From contig JAMQPK010000159.1 in the NCBI GenBank assembly GCA_023717525.1, positions 19,284 through 83,283 of the forward strand: DNA of 64,000 nucleotides, in the 5' to 3' direction. Origin of the DNA: Vicinamibacterales bacterium (GTDB lineage Bacteria > Acidobacteriota > Vicinamibacteria > Vicinamibacterales > JAMQPK01). The notes under the pieces are model-generated. The model was not told where the DNA came from, did not search any database, and worked only from the letters and a program-made list of their open reading frames with translations. Made by a program: the position numbers and the translations under genes. Positions 2,034 through 61,725 of the stretch are shown here, piece by piece (positions within the stretch are counted from its first letter, which is position 1; the number at the start of each line of letters is the position of its first letter).

Positions 2034-2420
2034 GCTTACGGGCGAGGGCGTGCCGTGTTTGAGTCGGTACGCCAGGATTTCTCCGCTCGCGCTCGCCAGC
2101 GAGACAATCACATAGAGGAAATCGGCTCCCCCACTCGCCTCGGCCACATCGGATGCCGACGGGAATGACGGTCCTGCCGGGTGCGAGTGATAGGCACCGA
2201 CGATGCGCCGATTCTCTGCGCGCGCTGCATGGATCGCCGCAAAGTGATCCTCCGGATCGATCGCGAAGCGCGTCGGCGCCGCCTCGCGGTTGCGCGCGCG
2301 CACACTCCGTTCAATCGAGTGCCTGTCTCCGACGAGAAGGCCGCAGCATTCGCGTGGCGCGTCCTCGCGCGCGTGCGCGAGCATGTCGTCGAGCACGGCC
2401 TGGGCGATGGTCATGGACAT
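2016..2420 (-). CDS. Mov34/MPN/JAMM family metalloprotease
   Basis: JAMM motif HSHPAGPSFPSASD and an upstream E..CG motif. The likely start is MSMTIAQ at 2420, because the longer ORF N-terminus is translated from a repeat element. Confidence 0.8.
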   Translation of the reverse strand: MSMTIAQAVLDDMLAHAREDAPRECCGLLVGDRHSIERSVRARNREAAPTRFAIDPEDHFAAIHAARAENRRIVGAYHSHPAGPSFPSASDVAEASGGADFLYVIVSLASASGEILAYRLKHGTPSPVSLVAAA

Positions 2421-2529
2421 TGGAGATTGGGTGATTGGTGATTGGGTGATAGGAAATCTCCAGTGACGGAGTGAGGGTGTGTGTCGGGCGATTGCTCCTA
2501 TCGCAAGATCACCTATCACCCAATCTCCA
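2421..2529. repeat. palindromic roughly 7-nt-periodic intergenic element between tyrA and the JAMM gene
   Basis: The array tggagat tgggtga ttggtga ttgggtga tagg (2421-2453) has its reverse complement cctatcacccaatctcca at 2512-2529. tggagatt can also pair with aatctcca at 2455-2462. The element begins 3 nt after the tyrA stop. Confidence 0.6.
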
Positions 2530-8229: not shown

Positions 8230-9272
8230 GACGTCCTCTCCACGGTCGTCGACGGCCTCGACGCGGCCACCATGGCATTCAGCGTCGCGATGCCGGCACC
8301 CGAATCAATCGCCCGGGCAGCGCGTTGAATGCCTTCCTGTACCGACCCTGCCTTTCCGCCGATGAACAGTGAAGCGCCGGCATTCAGCAGCACCACATCG
8401 CGTCGCGGTCCTTTTTCGCCGCCGAGGATCTCTTGCACGATCGCTGCATTCATCGCTGCGTCGCCGCCATGCAGATCCTTCGACGCCGCCTTCGGCAGCC
8501 CGAAGTCTGATGGGTGTACGTAGAACGTCCTGACCGAGCCGTTGCGGCACTCCGAAACCTTGGTGTGGCCCGTCGTCGACAGCTCGTCGATGCCATCTGC
8601 CCCGTGCACGACCCAGGCACGCTCGGCGCCAAGAAGGAGCAGGGCTCGCGCGATCAGCTCGGTCAACTCTGAGTGCGGAACACCGACGAGCTGCGTCCTC
8701 GTGTTGGCAGGATTGGTCAGCGGCCCCAGCAGGTTGAACGCCGTCCGCACGCCCAGTTCCCGCCGCACCGGCGTCGCGTGTCTCATCGACGGATGAAACG
8801 TCGGAGCAAAGAAGAACGCGATGCCCACCGTTTCCAGTGACGCTTCCACAACCGCCGGTGTCGCGGCGATGTCGACGCCAAGCGCCTCGTACACGTCGGC
8901 GCTGCCGCACTTGCTCGACACCGATCGATTTCCGTGTTTCGCCACACGCAGGCCGGCTGCAGCGGCGACGAGCGCTGCCGCCGAGGAGATATTGAACGTG
9001 CCGGAACGGTCGCCTCCCGTGCCGCACGTATCGAACGCATCGTCGAATGTCTTCGTCAGCCTCACCGCATTCGCACGCATGGTTCTGGCGAGCCCGACGA
9101 TCTCCGCCGGGCGTTCGCCCTTCATCGTGAGGCCCATCAACAGCGACGCGATTTGCGCCGGTGTCGCTTCGCCGCTCATGATGGCCCCCATGGCCTCGGC
9201 TGATTCGTCCGTCGAGAGGTTCTCCCGCCGCATCAGCTTCTCCAGAAGGGCCGGAATACTCACCGTCGTCAT
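8226..9272 (-). CDS. trpD: anthranilate phosphoribosyltransferase
   Basis: 348 aa with DTCGTGGDRSGTFNIS and KHGNRS motifs. Confidence 0.95.
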   Translation of the reverse strand: MTTVSIPALLEKLMRRENLSTDESAEAMGAIMSGEATPAQIASLLMGLTMKGERPAEIVGLARTMRANAVRLTKTFDDAFDTCGTGGDRSGTFNISSAAALVAAAAGLRVAKHGNRSVSSKCGSADVYEALGVDIAATPAVVEASLETVGIAFFFAPTFHPSMRHATPVRRELGVRTAFNLLGPLTNPANTRTQLVGVPHSELTELIARALLLLGAERAWVVHGADGIDELSTTGHTKVSECRNGSVRTFYVHPSDFGLPKAASKDLHGGDAAMNAAIVQEILGGEKGPRRDVVLLNAGASLFIGGKAGSVQEGIQRAARAIDSGAGIATLNAMVAASRPSTTVERTS

Positions 9273-14869: not shown

Positions 14870-17113
14870 ATGCGTGTGGCTTTTCGACATCTGCTCGTTC
14901 CTGCTCTCGTTGTCGGCGCGGCAATTTCGCTCAGCGCCTCGAAACCCGTGTTCTGGCAAACGGCGACTCTCAACGATTTCCTGAAAGGCGACGTTGAGAA
15001 TCTTTCTGTCGACGGCCACGGCCGCCTGGTACTCGGTCCCGCGACCGAACTCATCGCCGACACCAATGCGCCGTTTCTCTGGGCGGCTGCCGTGGCATCC
15101 GATGGCGTGATGTACGTCGGCAGCGGCAATGAAGGCAAGGTCCTGAAGATCGAATCCGGCAAGACGACGACGTTCTTTGATACGACGGAGCTGGAGGTTC
15201 ATGCGCTGGCGCTGGCGCCGGACGGAACGTTGTACGCGGCCACGTCGCCCGAAGGACGCATCTACAAGATCGACCGCACCGGGAAGGGCGCGCCGTTCTT
15301 CGATCCTGAAGATAAATACATCTGGAGCCTTGCGCTCGATTCGGCCGGAAACCTCTACGCCGGTACCGGCGAAAAAGGCACTGTCTATAAGATCACCCCC
15401 GATGGCCAGGGCGCGCCGTTCTATCAAACGAAGGCGACTCACGTCATCACCCTCACCTTCCAGAAGGATGGCCAGCTGCTGGCGGGCACGGAAGCGCCGG
15501 GACGGCTGTTCAGAATCGATCGCGCTGGAAAAGCGTTTCTCCTTCTCGACTCGACGTTTCAGGAGATCCATGCGATTCGAATCGATTCGCAGGATAACGT
15601 CTACGTCGCGGCATTGAGCGGCCGGCCTGGGCCGGCTCCCGGTCAGCCGGCAGGCCCGCCACCAGGCGAGACCTCGAGCTCCACCGGGACTCGCGAACCC
15701 ATTCCGACGGTCACGACAGAAGTGACGGCCATCGCCGTCGTCGACACCAGCGGAGGCGGCGCAAATTCGTCGGAGGCGCCCTCGCGCGAGGAGCGGCGTG
15801 GCGGACGAGGCGCCATCTATCGCATCAAGCCGGACGGCCTCTGGGACGTGATCTGGGAATCCGGCGACGACTCACCCTACGACCTGGTGTTCGATGCACA
15901 GGGCACGCTCATCGTCGGGACGGGCCGCGGCGGAAAACTCTTCAGCCTGACTGGCGATCCAGCGGCCGCAACACTGTTGATGCAGGCGCCCGCCCAGCAA
16001 GTGACGGGGTTTGCCCGCGACGCGAAGGGCGGCCTCTACTACGCGACTTCGAATCCTGGAAAAATCTTCAAGTTGTCGCCACAACGCGCGGTCGAAGGCA
16101 CCTACACGTCGCTCGTCCGGGATGCGCAGACGATCGCCGACTGGGGCACGCTCAGTTGGCGCGCGTCGGCTCCAGGCGGTACGAAAGTCGAGGTTTTCAC
16201 GCGCTCGGGAAACACCGCTACGCCTGACGATACCTGGAGTACGTGGGCAGGACCTTACGCCAAATCCGAGGGCGATGAGATCACCAGCCCGAACGCGCGA
16301 TACATCCAATGGAAAGCCGTGCTCAGCGGGAAGCAGGCGACACCGGTGCTGACCTCGGTTTCGGCCGCTTACCTGCAGCGGAATACGCGGCCGAAGGTGA
16401 CGAGCTTGACGGTTCATCCGGCCGGAACGGTTTTTCAAAAGCCCTATCCGACCGGCGATCCCGACATTGCGGGTTTCGATGATCAGGCACCTGATCGCAG
16501 GATTCTGAGCGCTTCGCCGAACTCAGGCGGGGCGAGTGCCGGCTCGGGGCTCGGCCGGCGCGCGTATCAGCGCGGCCTTCAGACGTTCGTGTGGCGCGCT
16601 GAAGACGACAATGATGATGAATTGCGGTACGAGATCCTCTATCGACGTGAAGGCGATACCGCCTGGAAGACGCTCAAAGCCGGGCTCACTGAGGCAATCT
16701 TCGTGTGGGACACGACTTCGGTGCCCAATGGAACCTACACCGTCAAGGTGGTCGCTTCGGATCAACCTTCCAATACACCCGGCGCCGCCCTCGACGGCGA
16801 ACTCGAGAGCTCGGCGTTCGATATCGACAACGCTCCGCCGGCCATCACCGTCACGGGATCTCGCGCCGCCGCCGGCCGCACGACGATTTCCTTCGACGTC
16901 CGGGACGAGTTTTCGTCTATTCAGAAGGTGGAGTACTCGCTCGATGCGCAGCGCTGGCTTGTCGTGTATCCGAAGGACGGGATCTTCGACTCGCGGCTCG
17001 AACAGTTCGATCTGACACTCGACACGACCGTTGCTGCTCGAGGTTTGATCATCCGCGCCTACGACGCCAAGAACAACTCGGCGACAGCTGCGGCTCCGCC
17101 AGTGACGCGGTGA
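14870..17113 (+). CDS. secreted beta-propeller repeat protein with C-terminal Ig/FN3-like region
   Basis: 747 aa with a signal peptide. Repeated blades of the type DGxLYAxTxxxGxIYKIDxxGK occur throughout. Confidence 0.7.
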   Translation: MRVAFRHLLVPALVVGAAISLSASKPVFWQTATLNDFLKGDVENLSVDGHGRLVLGPATELIADTNAPFLWAAAVASDGVMYVGSGNEGKVLKIESGKTTTFFDTTELEVHALALAPDGTLYAATSPEGRIYKIDRTGKGAPFFDPEDKYIWSLALDSAGNLYAGTGEKGTVYKITPDGQGAPFYQTKATHVITLTFQKDGQLLAGTEAPGRLFRIDRAGKAFLLLDSTFQEIHAIRIDSQDNVYVAALSGRPGPAPGQPAGPPPGETSSSTGTREPIPTVTTEVTAIAVVDTSGGGANSSEAPSREERRGGRGAIYRIKPDGLWDVIWESGDDSPYDLVFDAQGTLIVGTGRGGKLFSLTGDPAAATLLMQAPAQQVTGFARDAKGGLYYATSNPGKIFKLSPQRAVEGTYTSLVRDAQTIADWGTLSWRASAPGGTKVEVFTRSGNTATPDDTWSTWAGPYAKSEGDEITSPNARYIQWKAVLSGKQATPVLTSVSAAYLQRNTRPKVTSLTVHPAGTVFQKPYPTGDPDIAGFDDQAPDRRILSASPNSGGASAGSGLGRRAYQRGLQTFVWRAEDDNDDELRYEILYRREGDTAWKTLKAGLTEAIFVWDTTSVPNGTYTVKVVASDQPSNTPGAALDGELESSAFDIDNAPPAITVTGSRAAAGRTTISFDVRDEFSSIQKVEYSLDAQRWLVVYPKDGIFDSRLEQFDLTLDTTVAARGLIIRAYDAKNNSATAAAPPVTR

Positions 17114-17136: not shown

Positions 17137-17173
17137 CCCTGTCAGGGGTGAGGGAAGAGGGGCGAGGGAAGAT
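17137..17173. repeat. left inverted repeat, heptamer array AGGGGTG AGGGAAG AGGGGCG AGGGAAG
   Basis: ccctgtcaggggtgagggaagaggggcgagggaagat. It has four G-runs with 3-4 nt loops. Confidence 0.8.
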
Positions 17174-17313
17174 CTGACTGCTCAAGCGCGCAAAAAGCGC
17201 CTGCTACAAACAAGTCCTGCGGTGAACATTCTGCCTACACGATTGCGAGTCCCCTAGATTCCTCAAACAACACCCCGACCACTGTCAGGCATAGCTCTTG
17301 ATCTAGCCGCGTC

Positions 17314-17691
17314 ATGACACAGTCACTGTTCTGTGAGCGCGCGTTCGAGTTCGCAGCTCGCATTCTGAAACTCTGCGACCGATTGTCTTCGAGAGGTCCA
17401 GCTGCCCGCTATCTCGCGTCGCAGCTAATGCGCAGCGCCTTATCGATCGGCGCAAATGCCGAAGAGGCTCAGGAAGCCCAGACTAAGCCAGACTTCATCG
17501 CCAAGATGAGCATCTCGAGCAAGGAAACTCGCGAGGCTCGCTGGTGGCTACGGCTACTGGTGAAGGCAGAGATTGTGAAGCCGCACGAAGTGAGGTGGGA
17601 ACAGGATGAAGTGCTGCAAATGTGCAAGATGGTCAGAAGTGCTATCTTGACGGCGCGATCGTCATCGACACGCGGAGAAACTCGAGGCTAG
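17314..17691 (+). CDS. four-helix-bundle protein (23S rRNA intervening-sequence protein / Avd-like family)
   Basis: 125 aa. FEFAARILKLC...QLMRSALSIGANAEEAQ...SKETREARWWLRLL matches the hallmark pattern of this family. Confidence 0.85.
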   Translation: MTQSLFCERAFEFAARILKLCDRLSSRGPAARYLASQLMRSALSIGANAEEAQEAQTKPDFIAKMSISSKETREARWWLRLLVKAEIVKPHEVRWEQDEVLQMCKMVRSAILTARSSSTRGETRG

Positions 17692-17705
17692 CCGTGTTCG
17701 GCCCT

Positions 17706-17742
17706 ATCTTCCCTCTCCCCTCTTCCCTCTCCCCTGACAGGG
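17706..17742. repeat. right inverted repeat of the cassette
   Basis: atcttccctctcccctcttccctctcccctgacaggg is the reverse complement of the left repeat with 2 mismatches. Confidence 0.8.
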
Positions 17743-17767: not shown

Positions 17768-18565
17768 TTAGAGCCTAAATCCGTCGATGTGCACGCGCAC
17801 CGTCGCGACAACTGGCGGCCGCACGGTGCGGTGAGTGACGAGCCAGACGACGTTCAGGGGCACCGGCGACCCGGCGACGCGGGCAGGTTCGAAGCGCGCG
17901 GTCGCGGCGGCATTCAGGAGTGCGGACAGCTGGTCATGCGTAGCCGGCGCCAGCCGCCGGCCGTAGGTCTGGCCGCTCAACAGTTCGAGATCGGCAAGGT
18001 GTCCATCCTGCGTGACGAGCGCCGAGAACGCTGACACGCCATCGCCCGAGTCCTGGTTCATGACGGCTGCCGGCATCACCGCCTCGGCATCGGCGCGCGG
18101 CAACTCGACCGAATCCTCCGGCAGGTAGATGTCGTACGAGCGAACCGACTGATTCATCACTGCCTTCAACGAGCCTGGATGACCTTGCGGTCCCTGCGCC
18201 ATGACCAGCGCCCAGATCGCCATGCACACCGACGCGACCACCGAAACACCGAAGCTGGCCGATGCGCGTTGCGGATCATCAAACAACCGCCGGAAGCGGC
18301 TGGCTACCGATGCGTTGTCTTCGGCATCGAACCGCTGCAGGATGTCCGACTCCAGACGCGACAGGCCGGGCATCCACGCGGCGTCTTCAAGGCGCCCGCT
18401 CGACCGCAGCTCGCTGCTGATGGCAACCAGATCGTCCGCTTCCACGGCGCATCCGGCGCAGTTCTCGAGATGGTCGGCGATGCCGATGCGAACGGTCACC
18501 GGCAGCTCTTCGTCGTGATACGCCGACAGTTCGCTTCGAACGTACTCACAGGTCATATTCAGCAT
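17768..18565 (-). CDS. anti-sigma factor (zf-HC2) with TonB-C-like C-terminal domain
   Basis: The N-terminus has the zf-HC2 pattern C..V...LSAY.D.EL.......H...C..C, followed by a central TM segment. It overlaps the upstream ECF sigma gene by 7 nt. Confidence 0.8.
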   Translation of the reverse strand: MLNMTCEYVRSELSAYHDEELPVTVRIGIADHLENCAGCAVEADDLVAISSELRSSGRLEDAAWMPGLSRLESDILQRFDAEDNASVASRFRRLFDDPQRASASFGVSVVASVCMAIWALVMAQGPQGHPGSLKAVMNQSVRSYDIYLPEDSVELPRADAEAVMPAAVMNQDSGDGVSAFSALVTQDGHLADLELLSGQTYGRRLAPATHDQLSALLNAAATARFEPARVAGSPVPLNVVWLVTHRTVRPPVVATVRVHIDGFRL

Positions 18566-21482: not shown

Positions 21483-22405
21483 CAGCGTCCCACTCGAATA
21501 CGCGGATCGAGAAATCCGTATGTGAGATCGGTCAGCAAATTCACCCCGACGTAGGTGATCGCGATCAGCAGCACGCACCCTTGGACGGTCGGGTAATCGC
21601 GAAAGCTGATCGATTGAATCAGCAGACGGCCGATCCCCGGCCAGGCGAAGATCGTTTCCGTGATCACCGCTCCCGTCAGCACGACGCCGAACTGTAGACC
21701 GATGATCGTCACGACAGGTATCAAACTGTTCCGCAGCGCATGATGCAGCACGGCTCGTGTGCGCGACACGCCTTTCGCGCGCGCGGCCAGCACGTAGGGC
21801 TCACTGAGCTCCTCGAGCAGGCTCGCGCGCGTCATACGCGCAAGGATCGCCGCGAGTGAGGCACCGAGCGTGATCGCCGGCAATACCAGGTGCGCGGGCG
21901 TACCGCTGCCGCCGACGGGGAGCCACCCGAGCTTCACCGAGAAAACGATCGCCATCAGCGGGCCCAGCCAGAAATTCGGTACGGAAATCCCTGCCAGCGA
22001 CAGGGTCATGGCTCCGTGATCGATCCACGTGCCGCGCCATACCGCTGCGACGATGCCTAGCGGCAACGCTATCAACAAAGCGACAGCCATTGCGGCGAAG
22101 GCCAGCGTGGCGGTTGCGGGCATCCGCTCGATGATCTGTCTTGCAACCGGCTGATCGTTCCTGAGCGACACACCAAGATCGCCGTGGACGACGCCGTTCA
22201 GGAAGGCCCCGTACTGCACGACGAGCGGCCGATCCAGCCCGAGTCGAGCGCGGAGCTGCGCGACATCCTCTGGCGTGGCGCCTTCGCCGAGCATCGCCTG
22301 CGCCGGATCGCCCGGAATGAAGTGGATGAGCGCGAAGACGAGCGTCGCCACGCCAATGAGTACGGGAATGGTGAGCAGAAGGCGGCGAATCAGATACCTA
22401 AGCAT
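21482..22405 (-). CDS. ABC transporter permease (DppB/OppB family)
   Basis: MLRYLIRRLLLTIPVLIGVATLVFALIHFIPGDP is a canonical DppB/OppB N-terminus. Confidence 0.9.
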   Translation of the reverse strand: MLRYLIRRLLLTIPVLIGVATLVFALIHFIPGDPAQAMLGEGATPEDVAQLRARLGLDRPLVVQYGAFLNGVVHGDLGVSLRNDQPVARQIIERMPATATLAFAAMAVALLIALPLGIVAAVWRGTWIDHGAMTLSLAGISVPNFWLGPLMAIVFSVKLGWLPVGGSGTPAHLVLPAITLGASLAAILARMTRASLLEELSEPYVLAARAKGVSRTRAVLHHALRNSLIPVVTIIGLQFGVVLTGAVITETIFAWPGIGRLLIQSISFRDYPTVQGCVLLIAITYVGVNLLTDLTYGFLDPRIRVGR

Positions 22406-25310
22406 CGATGCCCAGTCGTTGCATCAGTTTTGCCAGTCCCTGGCGGCTGACTCCGAGCGCCGACGCCGTCTGTCCGCGGTGACCGGCGGTCCTCGCGAGC
22501 GCAGCACGCACAAATCGCTGCTCGAAATGAAGTCTGGCCATATCGAGGGTCTCCAGGGCGGCGGGCGCTGCCGCGCGCGCAATGGCCGCCGGCATGTGTG
22601 ACGCGCTCACAATGCCTCGGGCCGGCACCGCGACGACCATGCTCGTCAGCACGTTCTGCAACTCTCGAACGTTGCCGGGCCAATCATATCGCGCCAGGGC
22701 CGCCAGTGCGCCTGGGCCGAGCACGGCTTTGCTTCCGATCCGCTCCGCTGCCCGCTGCCAGTGCCGAACAGCAAGCAGCGGAATGTCCTCGGCACGTTCG
22801 CGCAAGGGCGGCACGCCGATACGAATGACATCAAGCCGATACAGCAGATCCTGACGAAAGCGGCCAGACGCGACCTCGGCGTGGAGCGATCGATTTGTGG
22901 CAGCGATGAGGCGCGCGTCGATCGCTCGCGTAAACGTCTCGCCAATCCGGCGTATTTCGCCTTCCTGCAGCACGCGCAGCAGCTTCGCCTGTGCGCGCGG
23001 TGACAACTCGCCGACTTCGTCGAGAAAGACCGTGCCCTGATCGGCGCTCTCGAACAGACCCAGACGCTCCACCCCCGCGCCGGTGAATGCGCCTTTCGCG
23101 TGGCCGAAGAGCTCGGTATCGACCAGATCTTCCGGCATTGCGGCGCAATTCAGCGCGCAAAATCGCCGCTCCCGACGGCAGCCCATACGATGAATCGCAC
23201 GGGCCACCAGCTCTTTCCCCGACCCGCTCTCCCCTTCGATCAATACCGCGAACGGCGCGTTTGCTGCCCTGGCGATCGCACGACGCACCTCTTCGATGGC
23301 CGCGCTCACACCGATCAGGTCGCAGCCTGCCTCGCTGCTGGCAGACGCAGGAGGGGCGCTGCGCTCACGTAGCGCATAGGTCAACGGGGCGCACGCGGCC
23401 GCCGCCGCCGAGCAGAATGCCATTGTCGCATCGGCGTTGGCTGGCCCTTCAGCGCTCCAGCGGCAAACGATCGCTCCAACGATGCGGGTTAGAAAGCGAA
23501 TGGGTGTGGCGGCTTCGAATCCTCCGGCACACCGTTCGATGCCGATCGGCTGCCCAACCGCGATACATCGAAGCCCCACGGACGCATTGACCGAGCCAGC
23601 AGCGGCAAGCATAGCGCCCACACCGGGCGCTGAGACACAGACAATGCCTGCTCCGACTGCCCCGGTCTGTTTCCGAATCGTGACCGCTGCGCGTCGGAGC
23701 GCCTCGCGCTCGTCTTCGATGCCGTGGCAATGGGACAACAGTTCGGTGAGGCCGTCGACATCACCCTGATTTGAAGGGAGCCTCGGCGCCGACGCAAACA
23801 CTGCCGCGGATTCGTGGACGGATGGCAGCGTCAGCCGTTCGAGCGCTCGTGCGAGGCGCTTGGCGAGGAGCGCGGGCAAGGCCACTCTGGACACGCTCCG
23901 CAGGCGGGAGGCGACGTGGCGAGCCCTGCCCGTCTCTCTGGTCCGAAACAGACCCTCCAGTAGCGTGAGCCGCAGTCGGATGGCCTGCAGCGGCAGGTGG
24001 GCATCTGCGGCCGCACGGAGCCCTTCGCGCACGTGAAATTCCAAGGCTTCCACGTCGCCAAGATGGGCCTGCACCATGGCTTCGGCCGTACGTACCAGAC
24101 TTTCTGTTGGTCGACAGTCGACCTTGCCCATGGCCAAACGGGCGCGCGACACGGCGCCCCACGCTCCAGGCACATCGTCGGCGGTCAGGCGCAGTCGCGC
24201 GGCGAGACACCAATAGCGGGTTGTATCCTGAGCCCCCTCCCTCGGAGTGATGGCTTCCAGTAACTGGCTGGCATCGCCGTGGCGACGCTGCCATCGAAGG
24301 CACCGCGCGAGGGCCACTCCCGTGGTCAGCTGAAGGCTCGTGTCGGCGAGCGCACAGGTGGCGGAGTATGCCGCGCGAAGCGAGTCCTCTGCCTCATGGA
24401 GGAGGCCGCGATCGGTCTCTGCAAGCCCCCCGAATGTACACGCCAGAACGGCTTGTGTGGCGGCGCCCCGGCGTTCGTAGTGCGACCGCGCGCGGGCGAA
24501 CAGTTCGCAGGCGTCTGCAGTGCGCCCCCGATTGTGCAGTAGCTGGCCAAGCCGCAGAGCTCCATCTCCCGCGTGAAGCGTGTCGTTCCTCCTCTCGCAT
24601 GCAGCCAGCGCCGCACGAAGAGCTCGTTCGGCTGCCTCGTGTCGTCCCCGCAACACCAGGCGCTCCGCACCTTCGAGGACGAGATACGTGGGAGATTGCC
24701 CAAAAGACGGCCGTCTTTCCGCAGCGTGCGCGACGCCCGTTCGAGCAAGCCGTAAGGCACGCGCGCCAACAACGGCAAACGACACGCGCGGCCTGGCAGA
24801 GTGCAGTTTCAGAAACCCGAGTGCGAGATCGCCCAAAGACGGCTCAGGCTCGAGGAGCACCACCGATCGTCTCGACAGAGTGGGCAAGAGGGCTGCGGCC
24901 ACGTCGCCCTCGCCCATTGAGGAGAGTCCGACTGGGATAAACCCGCGCAATCGCATCTCTCGAGCAAGCGCAAGGAATTGGGCACCCTGTTCGACACGGA
25001 GGATACGTGGCGACCATTGACTCGCATGCTCGAGCCACTCCATCGCATGCACGTAAGTTTCCGCATGCCGCAAAGGCGGCCGAGGGTTCGCCGACGCCGC
25101 CTCGAATCGTCGGTCGCGCCCGATGAACCCAAAGTCGATCAGTCGCGAGAGCGGATCCGTCAGGAGGTTCGCGCAGGCCTCGGACCACGCTTGTTGTGCT
25201 GTCCGCGATCCTGATGGCTCGATCGAGAGATGCACGGGTTCGCCAGTCGCACAGTCAACGATGGAGCCGGGCGAGAGCTGAAGAAAGCGATCGGCGATGA
25301 GCTGTGCCAT
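22398..25310 (-). CDS. sigma-54-dependent transcriptional activator with large N-terminal TPR/GAF-like sensor region
   Basis: AAA+ sigma54-interaction domain (GESGSGKE, GAFTGA, EVGEL) and a C-terminal Fis-type HTH. The likely start is MAQLIADRF at 25310. It overlaps dppB by 8 nt. Confidence 0.85.
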   Translation of the reverse strand: MAQLIADRFLQLSPGSIVDCATGEPVHLSIEPSGSRTAQQAWSEACANLLTDPLSRLIDFGFIGRDRRFEAASANPRPPLRHAETYVHAMEWLEHASQWSPRILRVEQGAQFLALAREMRLRGFIPVGLSSMGEGDVAAALLPTLSRRSVVLLEPEPSLGDLALGFLKLHSARPRVSFAVVGARALRLARTGVAHAAERRPSFGQSPTYLVLEGAERLVLRGRHEAAERALRAALAACERRNDTLHAGDGALRLGQLLHNRGRTADACELFARARSHYERRGAATQAVLACTFGGLAETDRGLLHEAEDSLRAAYSATCALADTSLQLTTGVALARCLRWQRRHGDASQLLEAITPREGAQDTTRYWCLAARLRLTADDVPGAWGAVSRARLAMGKVDCRPTESLVRTAEAMVQAHLGDVEALEFHVREGLRAAADAHLPLQAIRLRLTLLEGLFRTRETGRARHVASRLRSVSRVALPALLAKRLARALERLTLPSVHESAAVFASAPRLPSNQGDVDGLTELLSHCHGIEDEREALRRAAVTIRKQTGAVGAGIVCVSAPGVGAMLAAAGSVNASVGLRCIAVGQPIGIERCAGGFEAATPIRFLTRIVGAIVCRWSAEGPANADATMAFCSAAAAACAPLTYALRERSAPPASASSEAGCDLIGVSAAIEEVRRAIARAANAPFAVLIEGESGSGKELVARAIHRMGCRRERRFCALNCAAMPEDLVDTELFGHAKGAFTGAGVERLGLFESADQGTVFLDEVGELSPRAQAKLLRVLQEGEIRRIGETFTRAIDARLIAATNRSLHAEVASGRFRQDLLYRLDVIRIGVPPLRERAEDIPLLAVRHWQRAAERIGSKAVLGPGALAALARYDWPGNVRELQNVLTSMVVAVPARGIVSASHMPAAIARAAAPAALETLDMARLHFEQRFVRAALARTAGHRGQTASALGVSRQGLAKLMQRLGIDA

Positions 25311-25416
25311 GTCGTACAGGATGGGCACGATGCAAGCGGCCAGCCCTCGAAAACAGGCGCAAACTCGTGCGTCGGCGGGCCGATGGTGCAGAAACTTCGT
25401 ATAGAATGGCGTGCAA

Positions 25417-26628
25417 ATGCTGCGTTTTCTCACAGCCGGCGAGTCGCACGGCAAGGGCCTGGTCGCACTCCTCGAAGGCATGCCGGCTGGGCTCCACCTC
25501 GACTTCGACGCGATCACCGAACAGCTGAAGCGTCGTCAAGGAGGCTACGGTCGCGGGCGGCGCATGGCCATCGAGTCGGACAAAGCCGAGGTGTTGTCTG
25601 GCGTGCGCGCAGGCGAAACACTTGGCTCGCCGATTGCGCTCCTCATCCGGAACAAGGACTGGGACAACTGGCAGCAGACGATGCATGCAGAAGATCAGGC
25701 ACCGCCAGACGCGACAGGCCCTTCGCGGCCCATCGTCACCCGTCCGCGGCCGGGGCACGCCGACCTTGCAGGCGTCATCAAGTACGACCGCGAAGACATT
25801 CGCGACGTTCTCGAGCGCGCGAGCGCCCGTGAAACGGCTGCCCGGGTTGCCGCCGGCGCCATCGCGCGGCAGCTCCTGAAGCGCTTCGATATCGATATCG
25901 TTTCCCACATCTACCAGGTAAACGGCATCGGGCTCGATAGCCCGCTGCGTGTCACGTTCGAGGCCGCGCGCGACATTGGGAGCGATTCCGCTCTCCGGTG
26001 CGCCGATCCCGAGGCCGAAGGGAAAATGATTGCGGAAATCGATCGTTGCCGTGAAGCCGGCGACACGGCCGGAGGCGCATTTGAAGTGATCGTCCGGGGC
26101 CTGCCAGTTGGCCTGGGCAGTTACGTTCAATGGGATCGCAAGCTCGATGGGCGCCTGGCGCAGGCGGTCATGTCGATTCCGGCGATAAAGGGCGTCGGTA
26201 TTGGACTCGGCCCCAAGGTCGCCACCGTACCCGGATCGCAGGTCCACGACGAGATCGTGCCCGCGCCCAGCCGCACGAAGCCGCCGATCGGCGTCTCGCG
26301 CCCGACGAATAACGCCGGCGGCCTCGAAGGCGGCGTGACCAACGGAGAAGATCTGCGAATTTCCGGCTTCATGAAACCCATTGCGACGTTAATGGCGCCG
26401 CTGCGATCGGTCGACCTGGCCGGAATGACCGAAGCGCCGGCCGTCATCGAACGCAGCGACGTGTCCGCCATCTCCGCGGCCGGTGTCGTCGGTGAAGCCG
26501 TCGTCAGCCTCGTGCTCGCCGACGCGTTTCTGGAAAAGTTCAGCGGCGACTCCATCGCCGAGATCGCGCGGAACTACCAAAGTTCGACGGAGCGCCTTCA
26601 GGCGCGCTTCTCCACCCGACGGTCGTGA
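25417..26628 (+). CDS. aroC: chorismate synthase
   Basis: MLRFLTAGESHGKG..., RPGHAD and SARETA motifs. An in-frame GTG at 25411 is also possible. Confidence 0.95.
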   Translation: MLRFLTAGESHGKGLVALLEGMPAGLHLDFDAITEQLKRRQGGYGRGRRMAIESDKAEVLSGVRAGETLGSPIALLIRNKDWDNWQQTMHAEDQAPPDATGPSRPIVTRPRPGHADLAGVIKYDREDIRDVLERASARETAARVAAGAIARQLLKRFDIDIVSHIYQVNGIGLDSPLRVTFEAARDIGSDSALRCADPEAEGKMIAEIDRCREAGDTAGGAFEVIVRGLPVGLGSYVQWDRKLDGRLAQAVMSIPAIKGVGIGLGPKVATVPGSQVHDEIVPAPSRTKPPIGVSRPTNNAGGLEGGVTNGEDLRISGFMKPIATLMAPLRSVDLAGMTEAPAVIERSDVSAISAAGVVGEAVVSLVLADAFLEKFSGDSIAEIARNYQSSTERLQARFSTRRS

Positions 26629-34506: not shown

Positions 34507-35559
34507 ATGAAGGCGCTTTTGCTCGTCGGCGGCCAGGGCACACGTCTTCGGCCACTGACTATCAACCAGCCAAAATCGATCGTTCCCATCTTCAACCGCC
34601 CGTTTCTCCATTACCAACTGGATCTGATCAAGCAGGTACCGGAGATCGACGAGGTGATTCTGAGTCTGAACTACCAGCCGAGCCGCATTCAGGACGTCTT
34701 CGGCGACGGTCGCGATGCCGGCATCAAGCTCCGCTATGTGGTGGAGCCGACGCCGCTCGGGACAGCCGGCGGTGTGAAGTACGCCGCCAGAGGCGTAGAA
34801 GAGACTCTCGTCGTGTTCAACGGCGATGTGTTGACGCAGGTAGATCTCGCCAGCCTCATCGCGTTTCACCGCGAGCGGCGCGCCCGCGCGACCATCGTGC
34901 TGACGCCGGTCGACAATCCGACGGCCTATGGACTGGTAGAAACCGACCCGGCGGGTAATATCCTGCGTTTCCTGGAGAAGCCGAAGGCCGACGAAATCAC
35001 GTGCAATACCATCAACGCCGGAATTTACGTGCTCGAGCCTTCGACGTTCGACCGTAGTCCCGACGCGGTCGCCTGGTCAATCGAGCGCAGTTTCTTCCCG
35101 TCGTTCATCGAACGCCACGAAACGTTCCTCGCGTCGATCTATCGCGACTACTGGATCGATATCGGCACACCGGAGAAGTACATGCAAGTGCACCGCGACA
35201 TCATGGACGGCCGGTACGCGATGCCGCCTTTCAATGGGAAGCCCGGCCTGTCGTGGGTGTCGCCCGGGGCACGGGTCGACGCTGGCGCGAAAGTTGACGC
35301 GCCGGCATTCATCGATGAGGGATGTATCGTGCGAGCGGGCGCGCACGTTGGCGCCCATACGGTGCTGGGGCGAGGTTGCCGCGTGGATGAGGGCGCTGGT
35401 GTCGCTGGTTCCATCGTCTGGCCCGAGACGCACATAGAGCGCGAGGCCCAAGTGCGAGACGTCATCATCGGGCGTGAGAGCCATATCGGCCGCAATGCGA
35501 CGATCGATGGCGGCGTGCTGGGAGACAAGAGCGATGTCGCGGGATACTCTCGAATATAG
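34507..35559 (+). CDS. NDP-sugar pyrophosphorylase (mannose-1-phosphate guanylyltransferase-like) with C-terminal left-handed beta-helix
   Basis: MKALLLVGGQGTRLRPLT nucleotidyltransferase signature. An upstream in-frame ATG at 34483 is also possible. Confidence 0.85.
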   Translation: MKALLLVGGQGTRLRPLTINQPKSIVPIFNRPFLHYQLDLIKQVPEIDEVILSLNYQPSRIQDVFGDGRDAGIKLRYVVEPTPLGTAGGVKYAARGVEETLVVFNGDVLTQVDLASLIAFHRERRARATIVLTPVDNPTAYGLVETDPAGNILRFLEKPKADEITCNTINAGIYVLEPSTFDRSPDAVAWSIERSFFPSFIERHETFLASIYRDYWIDIGTPEKYMQVHRDIMDGRYAMPPFNGKPGLSWVSPGARVDAGAKVDAPAFIDEGCIVRAGAHVGAHTVLGRGCRVDEGAGVAGSIVWPETHIEREAQVRDVIIGRESHIGRNATIDGGVLGDKSDVAGYSRI

Positions 35560-35670
35560 GTCCTTCGGCCTTGGTCCTTGGTTCTTGGTCCCAGCCGACC
35601 AACGACGAACGACTGAGACTAACGACCAACGACTGGGACCAACGACGAACGACCAACGACCAACGACTGA
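35559..35670. repeat. heptamer-periodic imperfect palindrome between the NDP-sugar synthase and phosphomannomutase genes
   Basis: The left arm GGTCCTT CGGCCTT GGTCCTT GGTTCTT GGTCCCA is followed by about 11 units of GACCAAC/GACGAAC type. The arms are complementary at about 6 of 7 positions per unit. The element starts within the stop codon. Confidence 0.7.
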
Positions 35671-35673
35671 TTT

Positions 35674-37023
35674 ATGAACCAGAGTATTTTCAAAGCCTAC
35701 GACGTCCGCGGTCTTTATCCCTCAGAGCTGGACGAAGCCGCCTACTACGACATCGGCCGGGCGTTCGTCACGTTTCTGAACGCCAGGACCATTGGCGTTG
35801 GGCGGGACATGCGCGTGTCTTCGCCGTCTCTCGCGGCGGCGTTCATCGACGGTGCAACCAGGCAGGGGTGCAACGTCGTCGATTACGGGATGATCGCCAC
35901 CGACATGATCTACTACGGTGTCGCCAGCGACGATCTCGATGGCGGAGCGCAAATCACGGCCTCTCACAACCCCAAGCAGTACAACGGCTGCAAGATGGTG
36001 GGCCGCGGGAATGTGCCGCTCAGCGGCGACAGCGGCATCTCGGATATCCGCGACATGATCGCCGGCAACAAGATTCCGCCGGCGGCCGCCAGGCCCGGAT
36101 CCACGAGCTCTCGATCAATCCTCACTGGCTACGCGAAGCACGTGATGAGCTTCATCGACCCGTCGATCATCAAGCCCTTCAGAACCGTGCTCGATGCGGG
36201 CTGCGGCATGGCCGGTCTCGTCGCGCCGGAGCTGTTCAAGGCGTTGCCGGTGCAGGCTGACAAGCTCTGTTTCACGATCGACGGCACCTTCCCCACTCAC
36301 GAAGCCAACCCCCTGATCGAGGAGAACCGCCGCGACATCGTCGCCAGGGTAGTCGCCGACAAGGCCGACATCGGCATTGCCTGGGACGGCGACGCGGACC
36401 GTTGCTTCTTTATCGACGAGGACGGCGAATTCATTTCTGGCGACTTTGTGACCGCCCTTTTGTCTGAGGCATTCCTGCTGAAGGAGCAGGGTGCGACAGT
36501 CGTGTACGACCTTCGCGCCAGCCACGCCATCAAGGACGTGACTGCGAAGTACGGCGGCAAGGCCTACATGAACCGTGTCGGCCACGCGTTTTTCAAAGGC
36601 CGGATGCGCGAGCTGAATGCCGTCTTCGGCGGCGAAGTCACGGGACACTACTACTTCCGCGACAACTTCTACTGCGACAACGGCTTCATTCCCGCGCTCC
36701 TGATGCTCGAGTTGATGTCGAAGAAGAACCAGTCGCTGAAGCAGATGCTCGAGCCGCTCAGAAAGAAATACTTCATCTCGGGTGAGATCAACACGAAGAT
36801 GGCCAGCATGTCCGAGGTGGCCGGGCGACTCGAGACGATCGCGCAGCGATATCAGGACGCCAACCGCTACACGATGGATGGGATCTCCATCGAGTATCCC
36901 GACTGGCACTTCAATGTCAGGGCCTCGAACACGGAGCCGCTACTCCGTCTAAACCTCGAAGCGCAGAACCAGAAGATGATGGAAACGAAACGGGACGAAG
37001 TGCTGAAACTGATCCGGGGGTAG
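35674..37023 (+). CDS. phosphomannomutase/phosphoglucomutase
   Basis: 449 aa with the active-site motif TASHNP and the Mg-binding motif DGDADR. Confidence 0.9.
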   Translation: MNQSIFKAYDVRGLYPSELDEAAYYDIGRAFVTFLNARTIGVGRDMRVSSPSLAAAFIDGATRQGCNVVDYGMIATDMIYYGVASDDLDGGAQITASHNPKQYNGCKMVGRGNVPLSGDSGISDIRDMIAGNKIPPAAARPGSTSSRSILTGYAKHVMSFIDPSIIKPFRTVLDAGCGMAGLVAPELFKALPVQADKLCFTIDGTFPTHEANPLIEENRRDIVARVVADKADIGIAWDGDADRCFFIDEDGEFISGDFVTALLSEAFLLKEQGATVVYDLRASHAIKDVTAKYGGKAYMNRVGHAFFKGRMRELNAVFGGEVTGHYYFRDNFYCDNGFIPALLMLELMSKKNQSLKQMLEPLRKKYFISGEINTKMASMSEVAGRLETIAQRYQDANRYTMDGISIEYPDWHFNVRASNTEPLLRLNLEAQNQKMMETKRDEVLKLIRG

Positions 37024-37054
37024 ACGGCGAACGGTGAACCGTAGACGGTAAACG
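37020..37054. repeat. array of five heptamers GTAGACG GCGAACG GTGAACC GTAGACG GTAAACG
   Basis: Read directly from the sequence. It overlaps the TAG stop of the phosphomannomutase gene. The same unit family occurs inverted at 40045-40079. Confidence 0.65.
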
Positions 37055-40044: not shown

Positions 40045-40079
40045 CGTTTACCGTCTACCGTTTACCGTTCACCGTCCGT
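40045..40079. repeat. array of five heptamers (minus strand reads ACGGACG GTGAACG GTAAACG GTAGACG GTAAACG)
   Basis: Read directly from the sequence. It spans the rpiB stop codon and the rpiB-deoC spacer. It shares the 11-mer gacggtaaacg with 37045-37055 in inverted orientation. Confidence 0.65.
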
Positions 40080-43086: not shown

Positions 43087-43089
43087 ATT

Positions 43090-43124
43090 CTTCCCTCACC
43101 CCTCTCCCCTCACCCCTTTCCCCT
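43090..43124. repeat. solo heptamer array CTTCCCT CACCCCT CTCCCCT CACCCCT TTCCCCT
   Basis: Five exact 7-nt periods of the same unit family as the cassette inverted repeats at 17137 and 17706. The complementary strand has five G-runs. Confidence 0.75.
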
Positions 43125-47488: not shown

Positions 47489-48529
47489 TCAGAAGATGCT
47501 CATCTTCATGTTCAGGAACTTCTTCGGATCCTTGCGAATATCGTCGATCAGCGTGTTCAGGTTCGTGACGGTCTTATTGATGTTCTCATACAGGGCCTGG
47601 TCATTCATCAACTTCCCCATGGTCCCCTGCCCCTTGTTCATGTTGACCAGCAGCGTCTCCAGGTTCGTCGTTGCTGAGTTGAACCGCTGATACAGAGCAT
47701 CGTCGGTCATCAGCTTCCCCATGGTCCCCCGGCCCTGATTCATGTTGGCCGTCAGACGATTCATGTTCGCCGTCATGTCGGTGACGTTCCTCGCCAACGC
47801 AGGGTCATTCATCAACTGGCCGAGGCTGCCTTGCCCCCTGTTGATCTTGTCGGTGATGGCTGTCAGATTCCGCATCGAGGTCTCAAGCTGCCGCGCGGAT
47901 TCAGGGTTGTTCAGCAAATCACCCAGCGTGCCCTTCCCCTTCGACAAACTGTCGGTCACCTGCCGGGCCGACGCGGTGAGTTGCTGTAACTCGGTGTAGA
48001 GCTGTTCGTCGGTCATCAGCTTGCCAACCGTGCCTTTGCCGGACCGCATGTCGGTGATCAGCGCGGTCAGTTCATCGATGCCCTTTCCAGCCCGCGTTGT
48101 CACATCAGACATTTGTGTCGCCGCCCCGCCGCTTGGGACATAGCCATAGGGAGGGACCGGAGTGCCGACGGTTGATGCCGTGATGTCGACGGCGCCCTCC
48201 CCGAGCAGCGACACCGACCCGATCGTCGCCAGCGACGTATCTCGCACACGCACCATGTTGTCTTTGCGGAGCTCGAGATCCATGTGAATCTCGGTGCCAA
48301 TGAATTGCACTCTGGTGACCGAGCCCACAGGCAGTCCGGCGACCCTCACAGGCGAGCCCTCGAGCACGCCGCCGGCATTCGTGAATTTCGCGCGGATGGT
48401 ATACCGCTGCCACCAGAACCCGCCCTGGCCGCTCAGCGTCAGAATCAGCCCGGTCGCAATGACGACAGCCACCACGGCCATCACGCCGACTTTCAGTTCG
48501 GACCACTTCAGTGAACGCGTACGGGGCAT
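47489..48529 (-). CDS. mlaD: MlaD/MCE-domain protein with five C-terminal tandem helical repeats
   Basis: Start MPRTRS at 48529 is preceded by AAGGAA. The protein has a TM segment and an MCE domain, then five repeats of about 35 aa of the type G(K/Q/R)G(T/S)xGxLMxDxxLY. Confidence 0.85.
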   Translation of the reverse strand: MPRTRSLKWSELKVGVMAVVAVVIATGLILTLSGQGGFWWQRYTIRAKFTNAGGVLEGSPVRVAGLPVGSVTRVQFIGTEIHMDLELRKDNMVRVRDTSLATIGSVSLLGEGAVDITASTVGTPVPPYGYVPSGGAATQMSDVTTRAGKGIDELTALITDMRSGKGTVGKLMTDEQLYTELQQLTASARQVTDSLSKGKGTLGDLLNNPESARQLETSMRNLTAITDKINRGQGSLGQLMNDPALARNVTDMTANMNRLTANMNQGRGTMGKLMTDDALYQRFNSATTNLETLLVNMNKGQGTMGKLMNDQALYENINKTVTNLNTLIDDIRKDPKKFLNMKMSIF

Positions 48530-61668: not shown

Positions 61669-61717
61669 CTCTGGACTCTGGGCTTTGGGCTCCAGGCCTA
61701 GAGCCCAGAGCCGAGGG
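61669..61717. repeat. heptamer-periodic palindrome between ppdK and mutL
   Basis: CTCTGGA CTCTGGG CTTTGGG CTCCAGG CCTAGAG CCCAGAG CCGAGGG. ctctgggct (61676-61684) pairs with agcccagag (61702-61710). The element lies 8 nt downstream of the ppdK stop. Confidence 0.65.
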
Positions 61718-61725
61718 CCTGCTCG

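Follow-up and report, generated by a model that had tools for sequence, protein, structure and literature searches.

What kind of genetic element is a small gene that lies between two complementary repeat arrays on a bacterial chromosome? This question is raised by positions 17137 to 17742 of a 64,000-nt stretch of DNA from a Vicinamibacterales bacterium (assembly GCA_023717525.1, contig JAMQPK010000159.1, positions 19,284 to 83,283), which is referred to here, in its full length, as the window. The segment consists of two inverted arms that enclose a leader and a gene for a 125-amino-acid protein of the family PF05635, the S23p or intervening sequence (IVS) protein family. On balance, we consider it probable that the segment represents an IVS-type cassette, free-standing and mobile over evolutionary time, i.e., an element type that has hitherto been described only inside 23S rRNA genes, and that it is not part of a diversity-generating retroelement (DGR). 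The architecture of the cassette, the generality of this architecture, the covariation of the arms, the polymorphism in presence and orientation and the purifying selection on the gene are demonstrated by the data described below. As judged by comparison of loci, the three-part module, composed of an array, a leader with its gene and a complementary array, appears to move between loci as one unit, with the arms belonging to the element.

Arms, leader and gene of the cassette

The two arms are 37 nt long, 35/37 (95%) complementary and 532 nt apart, and they form the strongest inverted repeat of the whole window, which corroborates the 37-bp inverted repeat named in the initial annotation of this locus. 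The 5' arm (17137–17173, plus strand) starts with a terminal near-palindrome, CCCTGTCAGGG (17137–17147), which is followed by four heptamers, GGGGTGA GGGAAGA GGGGCGA GGGAAGA, and its G-rich strand is the coding strand. The 3' arm (17706–17742, read on the plus strand) consists of the units TCTTCCC TCTCCCC TCTTCCC TCTCCCC and ends with the near-palindrome CCCTGACAGGG (17732–17742), the consensus of the terminal near-palindromes being CCCTGWCAGGG. Both arms are built of tandem 7-nt units of the type GGGGYGA/GGGAAGA. A 15-nt double unit, AGGGGYGAGGGAAGA, occurs six times in the window, as compared with 0.29 expected occurrences, and none of 100 shuffled sequences reached this number. Four of the copies are located in the two cassette arms and two in a solo array of the same family (GGGGTGA/GGGGAGA/GGGAAGA; 43089–43124, minus strand), the existence of which had been noted before. 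The solo array has no partner arm and is positioned 4 nt past a stop codon and approximately 20 nt ahead of the upp gene, which encodes uracil phosphoribosyltransferase.

Each arm shows the canonical G-quadruplex (G4) pattern (G3+ N1-7, four tracts) within intergenic tandem heptamers, as do the repeats of Rehm et al. that are discussed below. Only three canonical G4 motifs are present in the 64 kb, namely in the two cassette arms and in the solo array. The initial annotation had recognized the motif but had assigned it to the outward-reading strand; the motif is present on each arm, whereas the G-rich strand of both arms runs 5' to 3' into the cassette. The energies predicted with ViennaRNA are −76 kcal/mol for the arm duplex and −12 kcal/mol per arm for the G4, and the two arms are paired in the minimum-free-energy fold predicted for the entire segment (z = −5.8). 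The view that the repeats constitute a special 37-bp G4 module is not tenable: the arms are tandem heptamer arrays, and other sequences are found around homologous genes.

The sole open reading frame (ORF) of consequence inside the cassette is located at 17314–17691 on the plus strand. Its 125-amino-acid product matches PF05635 (E = 1.3e-17, 64.4 bits, cutoff 33.8) and TIGR02436 (E = 2e-22, 79.4 bits, cutoff 24), both above cutoff, and its earlier assignment to the 23S rRNA IVS-protein family was correct. No other Pfam family was matched, and a Y1 (IS200/IS605-type) transposase is not encoded; the PF05635 protein carries no known catalytic motif. It is basic, with a pI of 9.65 and a charge of about +5.6 per chain, and its AlphaFold (AF2) model (pLDDT 92.6) consists of four helices (residues 5–27, 29–54, 58–84 and 94–116). 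A profile search against the PDB retrieved 2RLD (Bacteroides BT_0352, 'S23 ribosomal protein family') as the best match with E = 5e-42, followed at E = 1.4e-3 by 2GSC, the structure of the XCC0516 family of Xanthomonas. The accessory variability determinant of DGRs (bAvd, 4DWL) was absent from the results at E ≤ 1. When ranked by fold with Foldseek, 2RLD (template modeling (TM) score 0.8–0.9) and 2GSC (approximately 0.7) precede Avd (TM 0.65–0.85, approximately 15% identity). The initial description of the protein as Avd-like therefore holds, as a remote relation, at the level of family and fold, but not at the level of sequence.

To our knowledge, no function has been established for the S23p/IVS protein family, structures of which have been solved since 2006–2007. 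The ratio of nonsynonymous to synonymous substitution rates (dN/dS) is 0.04–0.10 in five pairs of homologues, and the PF05635 gene is under strong purifying selection. Decayed copies with an internal deletion or frameshifts were also encountered, in L016 (1594–1905, minus strand), L109, L110 and L112 (loci used for comparison carry L numbers), and their arms are still recognizable. In the DGR ribonucleoprotein, structured RNA is bound by Avd, a pentameric barrel with a positive charge (10.1101/2023.10.23.563531), and by analogy a nucleic acid is the probable ligand of the protein encoded in the window, the heptamer arms being the most plausible candidates.

The 5' arm and the gene are separated by a leader of 140 nt (17174–17313, plus strand). 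An alignment of 26 leaders revealed three motifs that are conserved in the subfamily, namely two GCAGAnnnTGC-like boxes approximately 40 nt apart and a TGGC-N8-TTGA box 12–13 nt ahead of the ATG; their versions in the window are GCGCGCAAAAAGCGC (17186–17200), GAACATTCTGCC (17224–17235) and GGCATAGCTCTTGAT (17288–17302), respectively. The leader contains no Shine-Dalgarno sequence, and a sigma-70 promoter scan returned nothing. A sigma-54 promoter was considered for the TGGC-N8-TTGA box, as the −24/−12 spacing fits and the start would fall at the ATG, but it was rejected because almost all elements have an A in place of the near-invariant C of the −12 GC. A gene for a sigma-54 activator is present in the window at 22401–25517. 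A terminator scan yielded one terminator-like site versus 0.8 expected, which is not above chance, and no Rfam family was found in the cassette, either at the gathering threshold or at E ≤ 10.

In agreement with the initial annotation, the cassette is inserted between two convergent genes, a gene for a 747-amino-acid beta-propeller protein on the left (14870–17113, plus strand) and a zf-HC2 anti-sigma gene on the right (17768–18565, minus strand), which is followed by a gene for an extracytoplasmic function (ECF) sigma factor. Pfam scans of 53 ORFs place the cassette in a core region of the chromosome that contains trp/aro genes, def, rsmB, uvrB, mla and mutL. Over the entire window, Rfam detected two tRNAs only, and the cassette flanks are protein-coding; thus, the cassette is not located within a 23S rRNA gene. 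Its interior has a GC content of 0.562 and its gene of 0.563, as compared with 0.627 for the whole window, and GC at third codon positions is 0.643 in the gene versus 0.73–0.79 in the neighboring genes. The lower GC content and the greater use of A/T-ending codons that had been described are real, although the differences are modest.

No reverse transcriptase (RT), transposase, integrase or invertase was found among the 53 ORFs, and no long imperfect direct repeat resembling a template repeat/variable repeat (TR/VR) pair is present in the 64 kb. A target-site duplication was not detected either, as no direct repeat borders the arms in the flanks of the window, L001, L003, L016 and L085. The absence of an RT, a template repeat, a transposase and a clear target-site duplication, as stated in the initial annotation, was thus upheld. 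The PADLOC defense models gave no match. The only long direct repeat in the window is a 102-bp intragenic tandem (47585–47875), which is present in three copies with 61–76% identity inside an MlaD-domain gene and probably reflects a repeated protein module.

Heptamer arms around other PF05635 genes

The order array, gene and reverse-complement array was found around nearly every free-standing relative examined (more than 40 copies from six bacterial phyla). It surrounds most of the close homologues from soil metagenomes and is shared by nearly all of 28 metagenome loci with proteins of 51–63% identity. In these loci, the inner edge of the 5' array lies 120–145 nt upstream of the ATG and the complementary array starts 1–40 nt past the stop codon. 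The unit types follow the protein clades and comprise GGGCAGA, GGGCTGA/GGGCTAA, GAGCAGA/GAGCAAA, GGGGTGA/GGGGTAA and GGGATGA. Units differ between elements, but both arms of any one element agree. This is also evident from quantitative comparisons: an inverted-repeat score of at least 30 was obtained for 19 of 26 acidobacterial cassettes (20 taken from the 28 metagenome loci and six from loci that are orthologous or related), versus approximately 16 for the direct-repeat control. Of the seven cassettes with lower scores, three are accounted for: L103 has a short flank, and in L099 and L105 the predicted ORF extends into the array. For 25 elements in which both arrays are strong, comparison of the unit of one arm with the reverse complement of its partner gave matches at 5.72 of 7 positions, as compared with 4.12 of 7 for shuffled partners (0 of 2000 shuffles as high) and 2.96 when units were compared on the same strand.

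By lag-7 detection, arrays were counted in 25 of 37 cases, and this is an undercount because the detector overlooks arrays of two alternating units, such as the 5' arm in the window. In 1.07 Mb of Vicinamibacterales sequence, segments of 378 bp placed at random are flanked on either side by period-7 arrays with a frequency of 5e-5; array counts compared across periods were not length-matched and are not used as evidence. The sequence (T/G)GTCAGGG at the outer array edges was considered as a universal end signal and rejected; it recurs in several acidobacterial clades and is absent from the GGGGTRA and GAGCARA clades. In L087, a second, gene-less heptamer hairpin composed of GGGCAGA/GAGCAAA arrays and then their complement is located right after the stop codon of the gene (1195–1370), which indicates that cassettes and gene-less hairpins can be adjacent.

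Plasmid-borne homologues from Cyanobacteriota, Bacteroidota, Spirochaetota and Chloroflexota display the same organization, and inverted heptamer arrays were present in all eight that were inspected. The units are GTAAAAA and TTCAAAA on two Nostoc plasmids, AATCCCC/AATCGTA on a Planktothrix plasmid, CAGTTAC together with ACTGGTC (13 copies) on a Euhalothece plasmid, TAGTGAT (15 copies) on a Bernardetia plasmid, GGAAAGN (about 30 copies) on a Treponema plasmid, and GATTTTA on plasmids of Chlorohelix and Gloeocapsa. As many of these arrays, e.g., TTCAAAA, TAGTGAT and ACTGGTC, are not G-rich, the conserved trait is the 7-nt period together with the complementarity of the arms, and not the G4 motif.

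Some cassettes lie inside operons. One is inserted between cas2 and cas1 (L113, Nostoc plasmid), and those of Chlorohelix and Gloeocapsa (L119, L120) lie between a DUF1156 gene and a Swt1-family HEPN gene, a context that is common to two phyla. In Xanthomonas, Dyella and Lysobacter (L121, L125, L126, L129), the XCC0516-family gene is located between accB and accC and is flanked by GGGAATC-type arrays. The acetyl-CoA carboxylase operon (accB-accC) is essential in model bacteria, and the shared site in three Xanthomonadales genera suggests that the cassette has long resided in this highly expressed operon. In the relatives examined, no RT adjoins the PF05635 gene.

Presence, orientation and relocation in related genomes

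The gap between the propeller and anti-sigma genes was compared in a scan of one genome per species, which yielded 80 loci encoding the propeller protein, and the closest homologues were looked up as well. About 70 of the 80 loci share the gene order, with a recognizable anti-sigma/ECF-sigma pair downstream. The cassette gene is present in only a few of them; apart from these occupied loci, approximately 70 loci with the same gene order contain no gene in the gap, which in most of them measures 0–260 bp. In the window's own host clade, where identities are 83–95% for the propeller and 75–85% for the S23p/IVS protein, the gap is occupied in the window, L001/L002, L003 and L016. The cassette gene is on the plus strand in the window and in L001/L002, and L003, L016 and the P0008 locus have it in the opposite orientation; the L016 copy carries an internal deletion. 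In the neighboring host clade, only L011 has a gene in the gap, and it encodes a second type of protein that is 65% identical to the window protein. The L011-type protein is 82% identical to P0008, which is encoded in the same gap in inverted orientation, and 88% identical to the protein of L004, an unrelated locus in which the cassette has an ankyrin-repeat gene on one side and a hypothetical gene on the other. In an alignment of L004 and L011, the arms, the start of the leader and the gene are common to both, and the flanks are unrelated.

Arms of the GGGRAGA type are present in every occupied gap with DNA on record, the P0008 locus being left out. Hence, relatives with the gene in the same gap carry the repeats, and most orthologous gaps are empty; the same gene without repeats was not found at the orthologous position. 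The mixed occupancy, the two orientations and the sharing between L004 and L011 imply, as a minimum, that the cassette was relocated once and inverted once, and that it was either gained twice or gained a single time and then lost many times. By this comparison, the cassette appears to be a low-copy element that has been gained, lost, relocated and inverted over evolutionary time, which supports the proposal of a discrete, mobilizable gene cassette in the initial annotation. The window contains a single PF05635 gene, and no further one turned up in related sequence totalling 1.08 Mb.

In L011, a second, outer inverted repeat is located outside the G-rich arms (8242–8878), with two copies of CACTCTCTTCGCGG on the left and GGAGAGAG...GCGAAGAGAG on the right, and it looks as if the cassette had been placed in the loop of an older hairpin. 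The records of L011 and L069, both derived from metagenome-assembled genomes, are titled 'uncultured Bifidobacteriaceae bacterium', yet they show the Vicinamibacterales gene order, with propeller identities to the window of 77% and 51%, respectively; these taxonomic labels look wrong.

Many of the empty orthologous gaps (within L005–L084) contain a hairpin with tandem-heptamer arms between the same convergent genes. Examples are found in L007 (8239–8336), L012 (8239–8345), L018 (8227–8297), L024 (8176–8341), L049 (5327–5423), L062 (8174–8276) and L079 (8251–8600). Depending on the lineage, the units are tctagaa, cgaaaac, gaacgaa, ggccaaa, tcaatga, atgccga, gggaatg, aaggcag or cacggtt; related species have the unit type in common and differ in copy number. 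The GGGRAGA type was never seen in these hairpins.

Heptamer families are also frequent within the window itself, where at least five were found in 64 kb, i.e., at least four in addition to that of the cassette arms. The second-best inverted repeat of the window (2416–2454 and 2496–2534; 39 nt, 87%) is composed of GATTGGG/GATTGGT heptamers around a 41-nt loop and lies beside a prephenate dehydrogenase gene. Two inverted ACGGTRA arrays (37023–37054 and 40045–40076; 32 nt, 91%) are 2,990 bp apart and surround tRNA, ECF sigma and DeoC-type aldolase genes; they may mark an old inversion boundary or may simply be two arrays of one family. A GGTCCTT array beside CGACCAA is located between nucleotidyl-transferase and phosphomannomutase genes (35559–35667), and a CTCTGGG/CCCAGAG hairpin near the junction of mutL and the pyruvate phosphate dikinase gene (61669–61720).

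Mechanism, competing explanations and known systems

A free-standing IVS-type cassette could be tolerated by its host as follows. In a read-through transcript, e.g., from the same-strand propeller gene, the arms would pair into a stem of approximately 37 bp that encloses the cassette, and RNase III would be expected to act on this stem as it does in the rRNA elements. Cleavage of the stem would then ensure that insertions do the host little harm, whether in spacers, operons or rRNA, and would account for the use of sites such as accB-accC and cas2-cas1. An enzyme for the movement itself is not encoded in the cassette.

Several observations weigh against this reading. The distribution at the gap could also result from one ancient gain followed by many losses, and the 65% identity between the S23p/IVS proteins of the two host clades is approximately what vertical descent of a fast-evolving gene would give. 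As no target-site duplication, transposase or recombinase was found, mobility is deduced from comparison only, and the occurrence at one site across Xanthomonadales genera indicates that the cassette can be stably resident. The mismatches between arms comprise 21 G.U and 19 A.C pairs, and in the absence of a G.U excess, sense-strand RNA pairing is not singled out over DNA-level pairing or concerted evolution. In addition, the leader boxes may form an internal promoter that gives rise to a leaderless mRNA without the 5' arm, and the stem model does not explain the 7-nt period.

A broader proposal would account for this period. Here, free-standing PF05635 proteins would be the missing partner of bacterial heptamer repeats, including the short tandemly repeated repetitive (STRR) sequences, which are the heptamer tandem repeats of cyanobacteria, the GGGAATC repeats of Xanthomonas and the acidobacterial arrays. 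Comparable to a REPIN-RAYT system, the basic pentamer would act in trans and bind approximately one 7-nt unit per subunit, the armed gene would be the master copy, the solo arrays and gene-less hairpins would be non-autonomous derivatives or regulatory targets, and the rRNA IVSs would represent copies of this element that have inserted into hairpin loops of rRNA. We regard this proposal as rather doubtful. It is consistent with the basic protein and its homology to the pentameric RNA-binding Avd, with the solo array of the arm family 25 kb off in the window, and with the arms in Xanthomonas, which belong to the genome's own GGGAATC family of 186 arrays with 70 convergent pairs (PMC4692102). 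Protein clades and unit types go together as well, but this may be plain co-inheritance. Moreover, at least four other heptamer families are present in the window, which has only one PF05635 gene, no further such gene was found in the 1.08 Mb, and the protein lacks a known catalytic motif.

Conversely, the arms might be host features, in that heptamer hairpins are ordinary intergenic terminators or insulators and the gene landed, or was kept, in a loop. The hairpins of lineage-specific heptamers in many empty orthologous gaps and the outer inverted repeat of L011, which resembles a cassette nested in an older hairpin, agree with this, as does the replacement of hairpin loops by rRNA IVSs (PMC4990558). 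We nevertheless judge it improbable, because unit type tracks protein type across unrelated loci: GGGRAGA accompanies the proteins of the window, L001, L003, L016, L011 and L004, and GGGCAGA, GGGCTNA, GAGCARA and GGGGTRA each have their own protein clade. The distance from array to ATG is also fixed at 120–145 nt, and GGGRAGA never occurs in the empty-gap hairpins. Programmed inversion between the inverted repeats, as in a phase-variable switch, would account for the two orientations at the same gap in related genomes, but the orientations are split by host subclade (window and L001 versus L003 and L016), for which one ancient inversion suffices. In addition, the window encodes no invertase, and both neighbors converge on the cassette, which leaves no outward promoter logic; such a switch is therefore very improbable. 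An orphan Avd gene that is the remnant of a DGR, or serves one, is the least credible explanation. The fold is similar to that of bAvd and PF05635 is the most common Pfam family near DGR RTs (PMC10053308), but the protein has no sequence match to 4DWL while matching 2RLD at E = 5e-42, and neither an RT (53 ORFs) nor a TR/VR-type repeat (64 kb) was found in the window, nor an RT next to the gene in the relatives examined; a DGR origin of the cassette was rejected on these grounds.

The free-standing IVS-type cassette hence remains our preferred reading, and its relevance extends beyond a single locus. It joins two puzzles, an S23p/IVS protein family without a known function and heptamer repeats without a mechanism or a partner protein, into one testable question. 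Catalogues of tandem heptamers exist for cyanobacteria, Xanthomonas and Beggiatoaceae, among others, and the sites occupied by cassettes include sensitive places such as accB-accC, cas2-cas1 and 23S rRNA. For annotators, the arms provide a recognition rule for widespread small cassettes that are now labelled only 'four helix bundle protein'. If PF05635 proteins were indeed the partners of these repeats, this would constitute a gene-repeat symbiosis comparable to REPIN-RAYT, but centered on a non-enzymatic, Avd-like nucleic-acid chaperone.

Among known systems, REPIN-RAYT resembles the cassette in that a single-copy gene lies inside an inverted pair of a short repeat that is also found elsewhere in the genome. 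RAYTs are Y1 transposases with known chemistry, and REPs are fixed palindromes of approximately 35 nt; in contrast, PF05635 proteins have no catalytic signature and the arms are tandem heptamers. Dispersal of the cassette-arm family amounts to one solo array within the 64-kb window, and in Xanthomonas the family is dispersed according to published counts (PMC4692102). With miniature inverted-repeat transposable elements and other non-autonomous transposons, the cassette shares the short length, the terminal inverted repeats, the intergenic location and the lack of a transposase, but it differs by the missing target-site duplication, the low copy number, the conserved gene and arms that are tandem repeats of variable length and sequence. 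Avd of DGRs (PDB 4DWL, 8UB7) has the four-helix-bundle fold, the basic surface and the Pfam family in common with the window protein; identity is approximately 15%, the nearest solved relative is 2RLD, and the window contains no RT, TR or VR.

The arms themselves correspond to the G-rich heptamer repeats that were described by Rehm et al. (2015) as GGGNATC in Xanthomonas and GGGGA(C/T)T in Nostoc (PMC4692102). In X. campestris, 186 GGGAATC arrays, mostly of four units, include 70 convergent inverted pairs, and no associated gene was named (PMC4692102). Like these repeats, the window arms are tandem 7-nt units in intergenic regions, often in fours, with G3–4 tracts that match the G4 motif and frequent convergent inverted pairs, and the arms of the Xanthomonas PF05635 gene are the published G4-forming GGGAATC family. 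Unlike these repeats, which were described as stand-alone, the cassette contains a gene between the paired arrays, and its units are not always G-rich in other lineages.

The closest parallel is the 23S rRNA IVS with an S23p ORF, as found in Coxiella burnetii and Leptospira. The IVS of C. burnetii is 428–444 nt long, contains an S23p ORF, which is reported to be decaying and probably untranslated, is bordered by a 28-bp terminal stem that is cut by RNase III, and carries two to three tandem GACAGAT heptamers, the number of which varies among strains (PMC4990558). Apart from this remark, no paper linking PF05635 with heptamer arrays was found in the literature that was searched. The initial annotation had named the protein family, but it had not recognized that the two elements share their architecture: both have an S23p-family ORF in the loop of a terminal complementary stem (28 bp in Coxiella, a predicted 37 bp in the window), tandem heptamers of variable copy number in the 5' part, a size of 0.4–0.75 kb, no encoded mobility enzyme and a sporadic distribution that suggests horizontal spread. 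In contrast to the rRNA IVSs, which reside in helix 9, 25 or 45, the cassette lies between convergent protein-coding genes and has a conserved 140-nt leader with promoter-like boxes. Its gene is intact and under purifying selection, unlike the Coxiella ORF, and cleavage by RNase III, known for Coxiella, is proposed here by analogy. The element in the window is thus best regarded as an S23p cassette of the IVS type that lies outside rRNA and has G-rich heptamer arms. The wider result, that free-standing PF05635 genes in nearly every copy examined lie within inverted heptamer arrays, among them the Xanthomonas G4 repeats and the Coxiella IVS, may be of lasting value.

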